The notes beneath the pieces were generated by a model that worked only from the letters and a program-made list of their open reading frames with translations, had not been told where the DNA came from and did no database searches. Made by a program: the position numbers and the translations under genes. A stretch of DNA of 64,000 bases, from positions 47,795 through 111,794 of the forward strand of contig CAYSCN010000003.1 of the NCBI GenBank assembly GCA_964429585.1, given 5' to 3'. This DNA is from an uncultured bacterium. GTDB taxonomy: Bacteria; Desulfobacterota; Deferrimicrobia; J040. Shown here piece by piece: positions 6,089-10,255 of this stretch (its first letter is position 1; each line of letters begins with the position of its first letter).

Positions 6089-6274
6089 TCAACCTGCGGC
6101 CTTGGTTTTTTTCCTCTTGTCGTCTTTGTTGCTCTTTTCCGTTCTGTTTCTGATGACAACGTCGTCGACTACTTCACCGCATATCACGCATCGCCACGCG
6201 TAAAACACTTCCAGCATATCCTGATATCTCTCGTATATCATGAGTCCGTTGCATCTCGGACACTTCATTTTCAT
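6089..6274 (-). CDS. Small zinc-ribbon protein (61 aa, CPRC…CVICG) with a Lys-rich tail
   Basis: The ORF has a good RBS on the minus strand (reverse complement of 6277-6288 = AAGGGAGGGA) before the ATG. Two CxxC pairs lie about 22 aa apart, with a basic C-terminus KDDKRKKTK. Codon usage resembles neighbouring genes. It is co-directional with, and upstream of, the ATPase. Confidence 0.55.
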   Translation of the reverse strand: MKMKCPRCNGLMIYERYQDMLEVFYAWRCVICGEVVDDVVIRNRTEKSNKDDKRKKTKAAG

Positions 6275-7753: not shown

Positions 7754-8101
7754 GTGCGAGTTCTCGTAATTGAGGACAACGCCGAGGTCAGGGAAATACT
7801 GAAGGAGATGGTTCAGCTTCTCGGGGCCGAGGCGGTTGTAGCTGAAAACGGATTGACAGGGCTCGAGCTCGTCAGGACAACTAAATTCGATCTGGTTTTC
7901 ACTGATCTCAGGATGCCGGGACTTAAGGGGACTCAGCTAGTAGAAGCGTTGAAGAAGGCGGTTCCAGATGTTCCGCTGGTTGTCGTTTCGGGTTCACCTC
8001 AGGACCTCAATGAGGAAGAGGTGAGGGACAAGGTGTTCCGGATAGTTAGAAAGCCATTTTCGATAAGGCAGATAGGGGAAATTATCGATTCTTTCCGGTA
8101 A
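7754..8101 (+). CDS. Single-domain response regulator (CheY-like receiver)
   Basis: 115 aa, GTG start after RBS GGAGGGGG. Canonical receiver residues are present: acidic pair VLVIEDN, phospho-acceptor Asp in LVFTDLRMPG, VVVSGS and VRKPF (Lys-Pro). There is no output domain. Confidence 0.85.
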   Translation: MRVLVIEDNAEVREILKEMVQLLGAEAVVAENGLTGLELVRTTKFDLVFTDLRMPGLKGTQLVEALKKAVPDVPLVVVSGSPQDLNEEEVRDKVFRIVRKPFSIRQIGEIIDSFR

Positions 8102-8127: not shown

Positions 8128-9186
8128 CTATCTCCAGCACTTGTTGCAGTATTTACAATTGACCTCAGTGCATATCGAAACGTTCTTGGCCGCGTACGCC
8201 TTTCCGGAATTGGCGTGAGACCTTTTCACGCATCCGTGGGGAAGATGAACGGATGGGATCAAGACGAGAAGCCCTATGAGTGCGAGCGAAGACGCGAGTG
8301 TCAGGATCTGTCCTTTGAAAGAGGCAGCTTTTTTTTCAGAGCTCGGGTTCCTGTCTTCTTCCAGGAGGGCCCGAACTCTTCTGCTTACTTCTTTGCTGGA
8401 AAAGTACGCGGATTGAGGAGCTTCTCCGCTGCTGTTCAGGCGGGCTGTCTTTACGATGGATTCTGCCAGAACCAGGGGATCGGCCCCCATTTTGACCGCG
8501 TACTGGTCGGCGGCCAGTTCCGTCATCAGCCTGAATCGTTCGAAGAGTTCATTTCTTCTGGGGATGAAGATCAGAGGTCTCAGTATGCTCCAGAGAAACA
8601 GTTTCTTGAGAGGGTGTCTGTATTTGACGTGTCCCGCTTCGTGGAGGATGACTGTCTCGAGTTCCTCTTCTGATAGAGAACTGGCAAGAGCTTCCGATAC
8701 GTAAATTTTCCCTTCTATAAGCCCGGTGGAGAATGCGAAGACTTTGTTTGAGGGAACCAGAATGACGGAGTGTCCCGAGATCCTTTTTTCCTGCCCCCTT
8801 GCCACGATCACGGGGGTTTCCTTCTCTACTTTGCAGATCGAATGCACACCTGAGAAAAAGTTCTTCAAGAATCCGACTATTCCATATGGAATCAGGAAGA
8901 GAATGAACAGGCTTATGGCAGCTTTGGTGATGTTTCCCAGAGAGGAAATTAGCGTCTGCGCCGCGTGGCAAAGGTGGATAGCGATCTTGGAAGACAGTAT
9001 CGCCGCGACTATCCCGTCCCACCTGGAATAGAGAATAGATGCCAGAAAAGAAAATGAGAGAGCCAGCGTAAGGACAGTTGTGAGGAAGAGTTTTCGACTC
9101 TCTCTCTCGTAGTCAGTCTTCCGATTTCCCCTTCTTTTGCTCAATGAGTTTCTCCAGCAGCTCCAGATCTTCCGGATCCTCAGCAA
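8128..9186 (-). CDS. M56-family (BlaR1/MecR1-like) membrane zinc metallopeptidase lacking a penicillin-binding sensor domain, with a Cys/His-rich C-terminal tail
   Basis: HEXXH zinc motif ILHEAGHVKYRH, flanking TM helices and the downstream ELAADQYAV region match the M56 protease domain. After a final TM helix (ILTLASSLALIGLLVLIPSV) the protein ends in HLPHGCVKRSHANSGKAYAAKNVSICTEVNCKYCNKCWR. The true start is uncertain because the longest ORF overlaps the upstream repressor gene by about 70 nt. Confidence 0.8.
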   Translation of the reverse strand: MLRIRKIWSCWRNSLSKRRGNRKTDYERESRKLFLTTVLTLALSFSFLASILYSRWDGIVAAILSSKIAIHLCHAAQTLISSLGNITKAAISLFILFLIPYGIVGFLKNFFSGVHSICKVEKETPVIVARGQEKRISGHSVILVPSNKVFAFSTGLIEGKIYVSEALASSLSEEELETVILHEAGHVKYRHPLKKLFLWSILRPLIFIPRRNELFERFRLMTELAADQYAVKMGADPLVLAESIVKTARLNSSGEAPQSAYFSSKEVSRRVRALLEEDRNPSSEKKAASFKGQILTLASSLALIGLLVLIPSVHLPHGCVKRSHANSGKAYAAKNVSICTEVNCKYCNKCWR

Positions 9187-9547
9187 CCTTTTCGATGAAG
9201 GCGGCTATCGCTGTTTTACCGTCCAGTTCTAGAAGTCCCTCTACCACTTTCTGCGACACGACGCGTTTGTACTCTTCTTCGGTCAGAGTGGGAGCATACC
9301 TGTAAATTTTACCCTCTTTTTCTTTAGTAAGAAGATTTTTTTCCACGAGTCGATTCATGACCGTGATGACAGTGGTGTAGGCGATCTCCTTTTCCCTCGA
9401 GAGCTCCTCGTGAACTCTCTTGACGGTTGCAGAGCCCATCCTCCACAGGACATCCATGATTTCCTGTTCCAGGTCTCCGAAAGTTTGCCCGATTCCCTTT
9501 CTACCAGGACGAAAGATGAATTTGATTTTTTCTCTCAATGATGGCAT
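9113..9547 (-). CDS. BlaI/MecI/CopY-family (penicillinase-repressor type) winged-helix transcriptional repressor
   Basis: The protein starts MPSLREK… at ATG 9547 after RBS GGAGG. Its N-terminal region (EQEIMDVLWRMGSATVKRVHEEL…YTTVITVMNRLVEKNLL) matches the Penicillinase_R DNA-binding fold. It has a C-terminal dimerisation helix and no CopY-type CxC…CxC metal site. It lies immediately upstream of the M56 peptidase gene. Confidence 0.85.
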   Translation of the reverse strand: MPSLREKIKFIFRPGRKGIGQTFGDLEQEIMDVLWRMGSATVKRVHEELSREKEIAYTTVITVMNRLVEKNLLTKEKEGKIYRYAPTLTEEEYKRVVSQKVVEGLLELDGKTAIAAFIEKVAEDPEDLELLEKLIEQKKGKSED

Positions 9548-9645
9548 GGTCAATTTTCCTCCTTGAGTTTGATTCATATTATATTTTACCTGTCGTAGAA
9601 ACACAACTTAAAATCAGGAGTTTTCGGCTTGGGGCACAATTAACT

Positions 9646-9675
9646 TTGACAGTCCGTAGAAAACGAGTGTAGAAT
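9646..9675 (+). promoter_or_regulatory. Candidate sigma70-type promoter (TTGACA-18 nt-TAGAAT) for the Met-rich protein gene, with GTAGAA repeat elements
   Basis: TTGACA at 9646-9651 and TAGAAT at 9670-9675, about 30 nt upstream of RBS AAGGAGGA/ATG 9707. Hexamer GTAGAA occurs at 9595-9600, 9656-9661 and 9669-9674 in the divergent intergenic region. The two promoter-proximal copies could form the repressor operator (speculative). Confidence 0.35.
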
Positions 9676-9706
9676 TTAACCAGAAATCACTCAAGGAGGA
9701 GCAACT

Positions 9707-10255
9707 ATGGAAGGAAAGAAGATAGCTGGTGTGTTTACGGTTTTTGTGGTGGCGCTTGCAATGGTATTTTCCTTTGGAATCTCCAATGCCATGATGGGAG
9801 GCCATTCTGGAAAGGGTATGATGGGTTCTGGAGGAAGCGGCAACCAGGGGATGATGGGAAAAAGCGGCGGCAAGATGATGGGAAAAAGTGGTAAGGGTCA
9901 CGGCGGAATGATGGGCGGCATGAAGGTCTTCGAGAGGGAAGCTTTCGGGATGAAGCTCGAAGGAAACATAGTGGATGTGAGAGCGCAGATGAAGAAACTG
10001 GGCAGGAACGCTCCAAGTGGAATAACTCACCACATCATGATCACTCCTTCCAGGCCATTCCCCAAGGGGACGAAGGCGACTCTCATCGTGAAGTCCCCAA
10101 GTGGCGAGAAGAAAGAGGTGGGACTCATGGCAATGGGCAATCACATGGGAGCCGATCTCTACCTCCCGGACCCGGGGAAATACGTATTCGATTGTCAGAT
10201 AACCTCGGGCGGTGAAAGCACGGAGTTTCAGTTCAGCTACCAGGTCGAGAAGTAA
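9707..10255 (+). CDS. Secreted Met/Gly-rich repeat protein with a C-terminal beta-rich His/Met-containing domain (putative periplasmic metal-binding, possibly copper)
   Basis: RBS AAGGAGGA. Signal peptide MEGKKIAGVFTVFVVALAMVFSFGISNA. Five MMG repeats follow (MMGGHSGKG MMGSGGSGNQG MMGKSGGK MMGKSGKGHGG MMGGM). Then a ~100-aa domain with HHIM and MAMGNHMG motifs. It is divergent from the repressor/M56 operon. Confidence 0.6.
   Translation: MEGKKIAGVFTVFVVALAMVFSFGISNAMMGGHSGKGMMGSGGSGNQGMMGKSGGKMMGKSGKGHGGMMGGMKVFEREAFGMKLEGNIVDVRAQMKKLGRNAPSGITHHIMITPSRPFPKGTKATLIVKSPSGEKKEVGLMAMGNHMGADLYLPDPGKYVFDCQITSGGESTEFQFSYQVEK

Follow-up and report, generated by a model that had tools for sequence, protein, structure and literature searches.

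A candidate metal-responsive proteolytic switch: a sensorless BlaI/BlaR-type repressor-protease pair divergent from a Met-rich secreted protein

We analyzed a 64,000-nt stretch (hereafter, the window) from an uncultured bacterium of the Deferrimicrobia lineage (assembly GCA_964429585.1, contig CAYSCN010000003.1, positions 47,795 to 111,794 of the forward strand), and more specifically its positions 8128-10255. At this locus, the genes of a BlaI/MecI/CopY-family repressor and of a BlaR-type membrane zinc protease that lacks a beta-lactam sensor lie divergent from the gene of a Met-rich secreted protein. We postulate that these three genes (the trio) may form a metal-responsive proteolytic switch. 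The features of the locus are listed below in coordinates of the window.

8128-9144, minus strand: sensorless BlaR-type membrane zinc protease (M48/M56 clan), 338 aa, TTG start after GGAG
8131-8247, minus strand: C-terminal Cys/His tail of the protease, residues 300-338, 39 aa with 5 Cys and 3 His
8629-8643, minus strand: HEAGH zinc-binding/catalytic motif of the protease, residues 168-172, read from the translation
8965-8976, minus strand: invariant HLCH motif of the protease, residues 57-60, in a polar helix between the first and third hydrophobic helices
9113-9547, minus strand: BlaI/MecI/CopY-family winged-helix repressor, 144 aa, ATG at 9547, Cys-free
9584-9600, palindromic: putative Operator A, TTTTAC-CTGTC-GTAGAA, matched by YKAC-N5-GTARAA on both strands
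9647-9661, plus strand: putative Operator B, TGAC-AGTCC-GTAGAA, overlapping the -35 element of the Met-rich gene promoter
9707-10255, plus strand: secreted Met/Gly/His-rich protein, 182 aa, divergent from the repressor
9707-9790, plus strand: signal peptide (a signal-peptide-like N-terminus), residues 1-28, ending in SNA
9791-9925, plus strand: MMG-repeat region, residues 29-73, 45 aa with 11 Met, 19 Gly, 2 His, and five MMG units
9926-10252, plus strand: beta-sandwich domain, residues 74-182, with conserved His and Met

The repressor and protease genes

The repressor matched Penicillinase_R (PF03965) over model positions 2-115 of 115 (E 1.3e-33; 116.2 bits against a cut-off of 22.6), and the CopY/TcrY model (TIGR02698) gave 74.6 bits, under its equivalog cut-off of 121.95. 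As a preliminary description of the locus had claimed, it is a BlaI/MecI/CopY-family protein in which the CxC...CxC site of CopY is absent; in fact, its sequence contains zero Cys, and it is therefore unable to sense copper in the CopY manner. A CopY-type repressor sensing copper directly was rejected on this ground. Its nearest solved relative is M. tuberculosis BlaI (2g9w; E 3.4e-16), with MecI and BlaI also found among its relatives in the PDB. Residues A116-F117 and the following IEK align with the N-F of MecI 'VLNFVEK' ('aiaAFiek' vs 'lvlNFvek'), the N101-F102 cleavage site of BlaI/MecI, with Asn replaced by Ala here.

An AAGGAGG ribosome-binding site stands ahead of the repressor ATG, and the gene overlaps that of the protease by 32 nt; in the orthologues, this junction is a 4-nt overlap or a 2-nt gap. 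The two genes are predicted to be translationally coupled in the window and in the orthologues alike. A genome scan seeded with the repressor gave no result. In addition, residues 1-22 of the repressor form a basic arm (KIKFIFRPG[RK]KGI) before the winged helix. This arm is kept in all orthologues and resembles one in a distant homologue (L005), and solved BlaI/MecI chains align to the repressor from residue 23-25 onward only.

The preliminary description had called the second gene product an M56 peptidase with an intact HEAGH zinc site. The site is indeed intact, and H168, E169, H172, E209, and D213 (i.e., HEAGH and the downstream ExxxD) are invariant across distant homologues. The assignment as a membrane zinc protease also held, with one qualification as to the Pfam family: Peptidase_M48 (PF01435) passed with 48 bits against a cut-off of 20.3, whereas Peptidase_M56 (PF05569) reached 30.7 bits, just under its cut-off of 31. 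The orthologous proteases pass M48 alone, with M56 giving 18.7 bits, 15.8 bits, and no match. Matches to the HtpX models of NCBIfam are weak.

Hidden Markov model searches of Pfam and NCBIfam found no transpeptidase or penicillin-binding domain in the protease, and the NCBIfam BlaR1 model (blaR1_generic) gave 20.7 bits against a cut-off of 400, with positions 158-255 of 585 matched. That a beta-lactam sensor is missing, as proposed earlier from the sequence, is thereby confirmed, and a canonical BlaR1 was rejected because the protease is without a transpeptidase domain. Lacking this sensor is the rule, not the exception, in the M56 family: ~6% of ~15,000 M56 proteins have a transpeptidase domain, and ~96% adjoin a BlaI-like gene (PMC13492132). 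When the AlphaFold2 (AF2) model of the protease (predicted local distance difference test [pLDDT] score of 77) was submitted to Foldseek, the best PDB matches were ZMPSTE24/Ste24 and the cryo-electron microscopy structures of S. aureus BlaR1 (8exs and 8exr, also 8ext).

The 338-aa product is identical (100%) to a protein in a public collection (P0001). Close homologues are rare, with 5 matches among 5.8 billion clusters in a word-indexed search, and a profile made from the protease matches drifted to actinobacterial sensorless M48/M56 proteins without the Cys tail. Distant homologues, too, sit behind a Penicillinase_R gene.

Conservation and topology of the candidate sensor elements

The trio is conserved in identical layout in every related locus recovered by our neighborhood check, i.e., four besides the window, one of them partial: L003 (a partial contig cut within the protease gene), L007 (a Candidatus Deferrimicrobia metagenome-assembled genome [MAG]), L008 (an uncultured MAG), and L053. 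Between the window and these loci, identity is ~60% for the repressor, 39-43% for the secreted protein, and ~32% for the protease, and SecA is 81% identical between the window and L007. On the strength of this SecA identity, the window is probably from the phylum-level lineage of L007, Candidatus Deferrimicrobiota. Judged by these sequence comparisons, the trio evolves much faster than SecA. The left-hand neighbor genes differ among the trio loci.

After its last hydrophobic helix, the protease terminates in HLPHGCVKRSHANSGKAYAAKNVSICTEVNCKYCNKCWR. The Cys/His tail noticed earlier at this place contains C305, C325, C330, C333, and C336 together with H300, H303, and H310. Its pattern, C305 and then S-I-C325-x4-C330-x2-C333-x2-C336, becomes C-x(19-23)-S-[IL]-C-x4-C-x2-C-x2-C across the orthologues. 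The four complete proteases share 59 invariant columns out of 357, and these include the catalytic residues, HLCH, and all five tail Cys, whereas Cys columns other than C59 and the five of the tail vary. HLCH and the five Cys are thus the most conserved non-catalytic residues of the protease, and HLCH is a candidate set of extracytoplasmic metal ligands. The Cys tail is missing from 87 distant sensorless homologues, which are mostly actinobacterial.

In P0003 (L006:2951-3862), a distant M48/M56 protease that is also sensorless and paired with a BlaI-like gene, a Cys/His-rich stretch, FICHSGPGWLHLCWCH, lies between hydrophobic helices, and this stretch contains 'HLC', like the HLCH of the window protease. 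There is thus a hint of loop Cys/His sites in further sensorless BlaR proteins.

Hydropathy analysis of the protease revealed strong helices at residues 19-40, 75-97, and 280-300 and a weak, polar helix at residues 45-62 that bears HLCH. In all four orthologous proteases, Lys and Arg (K/R) are concentrated in three places, namely, the basic N-terminus of 12-18 aa, the residues immediately following helix 3, and those immediately preceding the last helix (2-8 K/R), whereas segments 41-44 and 63-74 and the first ten residues of the tail have 0-1 K/R. Residues 41-74 are Met-free in every orthologue. Since the inner flank of the last helix is basic and the start of the tail is not, the tail probably lies outside the cytoplasm, in agreement with the placement proposed earlier. 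From this charge distribution, the simplest reading of the order is a cytoplasmic N-terminus, transmembrane helix (TM) 1, a periplasmic or interfacial HLCH helix, TM3, the cytoplasmic protease domain, TM4, and the periplasmic Cys tail. The AF2 model draws three consecutive N-terminal helices, like BlaR1 and PetP (a Synechocystis protease compared below). Under either topology, HLCH and the tail would be on the outer side, provided that the protease domain is on the cytoplasmic side, together with its substrate.

The same data bear on an explanation that we regard as very improbable, namely, that no signaling link exists: an HtpX-like quality-control protease would be merely co-transcribed, or a cytoplasmic tail would bind Zn or Fe-S, and the repressor would answer another signal. 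The Pfam thresholds, by which the protein is M48 and not M56, and the weak HtpX matches agree with this explanation. So do the likeness of CX4CX2CX2C to cytoplasmic metal-cluster motifs and a naive positive-inside count, by which the basic N-terminus and basic tail fit an in/in topology. Yet with that topology the catalytic domain would be periplasmic and separated from the one substrate that is plausible for it, and the K/R contrast between the inner flank of the last helix and the start of the tail runs against it. Moreover, the predicted translational coupling extends to the orthologues, and a BlaI-like gene adjoins ~96% of M56-type proteases, the pair being a functional unit wherever tested.

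The control region and the secreted Met-rich protein

The intergenic region between the divergent genes (9548-9706; 159 nt) holds two promoters and two copies of one motif. Operator A exactly fills the 17-nt spacer of the minus-strand blaI promoter (-35 TTGTGT at 9601-9606, -10 TATAAT at 9578-9583), and Operator B overlaps the plus-strand promoter of the Met-rich gene, TTGACA(9646)-18-TAGAAT(9675), which scores 11/12. Across the 64 kb window, YKAC-N5-GTARAA has 3 strand-matches against 0.48 expected, all within this intergenic region. Operator A recurs at the equivalent place in all four other trio loci, as does TTGACA-N4-GTAGAA (i.e., Operator B with its -35 element); each orthologous locus has exactly two sites, in equivalent places, and the flanks of the loci have none. 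The 3-5-3 geometry is that of GACN5GTC, the operator of PetR (the repressor partner of PetP), with half-sites that here read TAC/GAC...GTA. The number and placement of the sites give the picture expected for an autoregulated repressor with a single extra target, and the predicted regulon thus appears to consist of the Met-rich gene alone, besides the repressor operon itself.

Rfam returned nothing meaningful for the control region, and the idea of a riboswitch or another RNA element there was therefore rejected. In addition, a perfect 12-nt inverted repeat, ACTCAAGGAGGA, at 9557-9568 and 9689-9700 forms the ribosome-binding regions of both divergent genes, and both mRNA leaders consequently have an identical 12 nt.

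The secreted protein was found to be built as described before, of MMG repeats followed by a His/Met-bearing domain; a DNA-level tandem repeat underlying the MMG units was rejected. All sequence features noted in the preliminary description are found at the coordinates that it gave. In its AF2 model, residues 70-182 form a confident beta-sandwich (pLDDT >90) and the MMG region is disordered. Foldseek placed this model closest to CopC, FtrA-P19, and H. pylori CrdA, with HftA and Tp34 also found. As modeled, the protein has both the fold and the candidate His/Met metal site of periplasmic copper beta-sandwich proteins.

Close homologues of this protein number 3 among the 5.8 billion clusters (word-indexed search), and an exhaustive HMMER search with the C-terminal domain recovered 210 representatives at E <=0.001. 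Of the 150 that were listed, about 120 are small proteins in which the domain is combined with a signal-peptide-like N-terminus and an N-region rich in His/Met. Residues H108, H109, M143, G148, and D150 are nearly invariant in this His/Met-domain family. Among 48 of its members, weak Pfam matches were found to YtkA (PF13115; 8 members), P19/Iron_transport (PF10634; 2), and CopC (1). The family profile 'lmaM..GghfGaD' aligns with the P19 segment 'FMPM....GPHYGAN', which holds copper ligands, with E ~0.1 against the P19 sequences in the PDB.

The genomic context of the wider family appears decisive for function. A CusA/CzcA pump gene (TIGR00914, 1163 bits) accompanies the family gene in 30 of 44 metagenome loci and lies directly upstream wherever the flank suffices, and CusB-like adaptors were recovered in 15 of these 30. 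Two further subfamilies stand at the 3' end of OEP-CusB-RND operons, and in a third, a CusA-like C-terminal fragment precedes the family gene. Given this CusA/CusB context, we infer that the wider family is a CusF/CrdA-like pump accessory. No BlaI or M48/M56 gene was found within 4 kb of the family gene in any of the 44 distant loci, and general control of the family by BlaI/BlaR was therefore rejected. Only in the Deferrimicrobiota-type clade does the family seem to have been detached from the pump and put under a BlaI/BlaR pair.

Two other gene products were observed beside members of this family. At L048:204-1964 (plus strand), downstream of the CusA and His/Met-domain genes, a membrane sensor with a Cache-like region, HAMP, and an adenylate/guanylate cyclase domain bears MMG repeats (SSGMMGMMGGGSSDGRGMMGGG...) in its presumably extracytoplasmic part, like the N-region of the window protein. 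Such a cyclase cluster occurs in 12 of the 44 loci (L009-L052), and this sensor may be a Met-rich metal-sensing cyclase. The other, encoded at L056:1846-2235 (minus strand) divergent from a His/Met-domain gene and adjoining a CusA fragment, is a secreted protein of 129 aa that has two clusters of Cys (ACACGPECDCG and CVCKQECGCD) and matches no Pfam model.

The nature of the target bears on which signal the switch would receive. The same proteolytic switch could answer a non-copper signal, i.e., periplasmic thiol-redox or envelope stress, or Zn, Cd, or Fe, sensed by the six Cys, with the secreted protein serving that stress (for example, through P19-like iron handling). We consider this somewhat unlikely, though it has several points behind it: Cys clusters are classic redox sensors, most sensorless BlaR systems have signals that are unrelated to metals or not known, and the structural neighbors P19, HftA, and Tp34 are iron-uptake components with copper as a cofactor. 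The wider family of the target, however, is tied to CusA/CusB-type pumps and not to FTR1-type iron permeases, and Cu(I)/Ag(I) binders typically have N-terminal regions rich in His/Met. CrdA has been cited as a case of such a copper-binding N-region (PMC9182242).

Alternatively, as the preliminary description had also considered, the secreted Met-rich protein may itself be the sensor; it would bind metal and then engage the protease from the periplasm in a three-component relay, and the Cys tail would serve for docking or as a structural knot (zinc or disulfide). The target gene does co-occur strictly with the Cys-tail protease subfamily, in all five loci, and a single-gene regulon fits a feedback partner. 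We nevertheless hold this relay to be improbable, given that a sensor repressed by its own switch would need basal expression and that HLCH and the five Cys hold the highest non-catalytic conservation in the protease. In addition, the wider family works without a BlaI/BlaR partner, and this argues for a domain that is primarily a pump accessory, not a signaling ligand.

The proposed switch and its relation to known systems

Based on the conserved trio, the operators, the copper-protein fold, and the CusCBA-linked family, a metal-responsive proteolytic switch is our best reading of the locus. More specifically, we postulate a BlaI/BlaR-type regulated-proteolysis switch wired to periplasmic copper (or silver) handling, to which we assign a probability of roughly 0.45.

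In such a switch, the Cys-free repressor would bind as a dimer to the two TAC/GAC-N5-GTA operators and keep both transcripts low. The protease, to judge from its charge distribution, would have its catalytic domain in the cytoplasm and its HLCH helix and five-Cys tail in the periplasm. A thiophilic metal, most likely Cu(I) in a probably anaerobic organism, would bind these Cys6/His2 elements and activate the protease, with the metal-bound site taking the role that the sensor domain docked on the L2 loop has in BlaR1. The activated protease would then cleave the repressor near the conserved A116-F117, the whole step being modeled on BlaR1 and PetP. Both promoters would then fire, yielding more sensor, more repressor, and more of the secreted His/Met-rich protein, which would buffer or chaperone periplasmic Cu(I)/Ag(I) like CrdA, CusF, and P19-type proteins, as its fold, its His/Met content, and the context of its relatives suggest. 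The more specific proposal that HLCH and the five-Cys tail together make up a Cu(I)/Ag(I)-thiolate site outside the cytoplasm, in place of the penicillin-binding protein (PBP) domain, with a pump-independent, CusF/CrdA-like periplasmic chaperone as the output, is more tentative.

Several observations weigh against this copper switch. The metal dependence is deduced solely from the target gene and from the Cys/His chemistry, and the six periplasmic Cys could equally form disulfides. No Pfam or NCBIfam model matched the Met-rich protein of the window, with nothing from the P19/Tp34, YtkA, and CopC models even at E up to 10, and no CusA, CusB, or TolC homologue or other copper gene was found in the 64 kb window. 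The tail was modeled at low confidence (pLDDT ~52-55) and in the window protease is basic (7 K/R in 39 aa); furthermore, AF2 draws a three-helix N-terminus, whereas the charge bias argues that the middle helix is not membrane-spanning. Finally, the trio loci were found by seeding with the Met-rich gene, so that they are not an independent sample of the association between the protease and that gene, and all instances come from one lineage with a common downstream synteny (M23 peptidase, SecA), which means that the conservation may partly be vertical inheritance.

The preliminary description knew of no characterized metal-linked BlaR1 variant. This belief is out of date, since PetR/PetP of Synechocystis sp. 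PCC 6803 has been studied: PetP degrades PetR only with copper present (bioRxiv 10.1101/2020.07.31.226407; PNAS 2021). PetP senses copper outside the cytoplasm near the TM2-TM3 loop, with two loop Met as candidate ligands, is predicted to have four helices starting at residue 4 and a short outside N-terminus, and matches both M48 and M56 (bioRxiv 10.1101/2020.07.31.226407). We compared the window locus with PetR/PetP (Slr0240/Slr0241) through this published description, not through sequence alignment. In both systems, a BlaI/CopY regulator free of the CopY site overlaps a downstream sensorless M48/M56 membrane protease (~300 aa in PetP), the operator, putative here, has two 3-nt half-sites 5 nt apart, though of different sequence (GACN5GTC for PetR, TAC/GAC-N5-GTA here), and the regulon is tiny. 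Unlike PetP, the window protease has a Cys-rich tail and, like its orthologues (12-18 aa), a basic N-terminus, and where PetP has its loop Met pair, residues 41-74 are Met-free and HLCH is invariant instead. The targets and hosts differ as well: PetR also activates petJ and acts on photosynthetic electron carriers in Cyanobacteria, whereas here the target is a periplasmic chaperone-like protein in a Deferrimicrobiota-like organism. The locus thus appears to work like PetRP without being a PetRP orthologue.

With BlaI/BlaR1 and MecI/MecR1 of S. aureus and B. licheniformis, the locus shares the repressor fold with an aligned Phe in the cleavage region and a predicted autoregulation divergent from the controlled gene. 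It also shares a membrane-embedded gluzincin protease (HExxH...ExxxD) encoded beside blaI, with the AF2 match to 8exs and 8exr. Unlike these systems, it has a 39-aa Cys/His tail in place of the ~250-aa penicillin-binding sensor, and its target is neither a beta-lactamase nor PBP2a. Moreover, the N-terminus of BlaR1 lies outside, whereas that of the window protease is basic and probably cytoplasmic.

Other BlaI-BlaR systems are closer in lacking the sensor. C. difficile CenIR acts on the cell envelope, P. aeruginosa PvmSR on virulence and metabolism, and M. abscessus BlaRI, as cited in PMC13492132, on energy metabolism. Like these and the M. tuberculosis system, whose BlaI (2g9w) is the closest solved relative of the window repressor, the locus pairs a transpeptidase-free M56/M48 protease with a BlaI-like gene, and short C-terminal regions are unique to each of these atypical systems. 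Their regulons, in contrast, are unrelated to metals, and neither a conserved Cys6/His motif nor a target resembling a copper chaperone has been reported for any of them.

As regards the target, the secreted protein has, like CrdA, P19/FtrA/HftA/Tp34, YtkA, and CopC, an Ig-like beta-sandwich (closest to CrdA and P19) with conserved His/Met ligand candidates, and the genes of its relatives accompany those of CusCBA/CzcBA-type pumps, just as the gene of CrdA accompanies CrdB-CzcBA. Unlike the CrdA/P19/CusF class, it has a long additional MMG N-region, and its gene is detached from the pump and stands under a BlaI/BlaR switch. Placement of a His/Met protein beside cusCBA, the arrangement of CusF, is true of the wider family but not of the window gene, and CusF has a different (OB) fold. 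The repressor belongs to the same winged-helix family as CopY/TcrY of Firmicutes, whose operators are TACA-type dyads (PMC7253601). CopY, however, binds Cu(I) via a C-terminal CxCx4CxC and acts without a protease, whereas the window repressor is without Cys and scores below the CopY cut-off.

What is new here is the invariant HLCH and five-Cys tail as an explicit candidate sensor, a CusF/CrdA-like chaperone as the predicted sole target, and the occurrence of such a system in Candidatus Deferrimicrobiota. About 94% of BlaR-like proteases are without a beta-lactam sensor and their signals are largely not known, and in PetP, the one copper-responsive case, the metal site is not yet defined. The clade offers a clean system, with a one-gene predicted regulon, two clear operators, and a candidate Cys/His sensor that is short, invariant, and open to mutation or transplantation, and we see its value mainly in giving a tractable setting for the question of how BlaR proteases without a beta-lactam sensor perceive their signals. 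If HLCH and the tail do form a Cu(I)/Ag(I)-thiolate site, this would be the first case of a definable metal sensor built into a BlaR-type protease and the first copper-responsive BlaI/BlaR switch outside cyanobacteria. The locus also appears to show how a family of copper chaperones that normally goes with CusCBA pumps came under the control of a proteolytic switch, in an uncultured and probably anaerobic lineage.

Around the locus, the gene of a stand-alone response-regulator receiver (7754-8101, plus strand; 115 aa) runs toward that of the protease, and 26 nt separate the two stop codons. Near-identical contigs keep this gene, but L007, L008, and L053 lack it, and it therefore lies outside the conserved unit. 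Between the genes of a T2SSE/MshEN ATPase and a TPR/YaiO outer-membrane protein, a 61-aa open reading frame (6089-6274, minus strand) with a zinc-ribbon-like CPRC...CVIC was observed, and a gene is also called at this position in the related contigs L001 and L053. Housekeeping genes (secA, argJ, rpsB, and others) surround the locus. Over the whole window (1-64000), GC skew is positive in nearly all 2-kb bins, the cumulative skew rises steadily, and most genes are on the plus strand, which fits a single replichore arm with a strong gene-strand bias.

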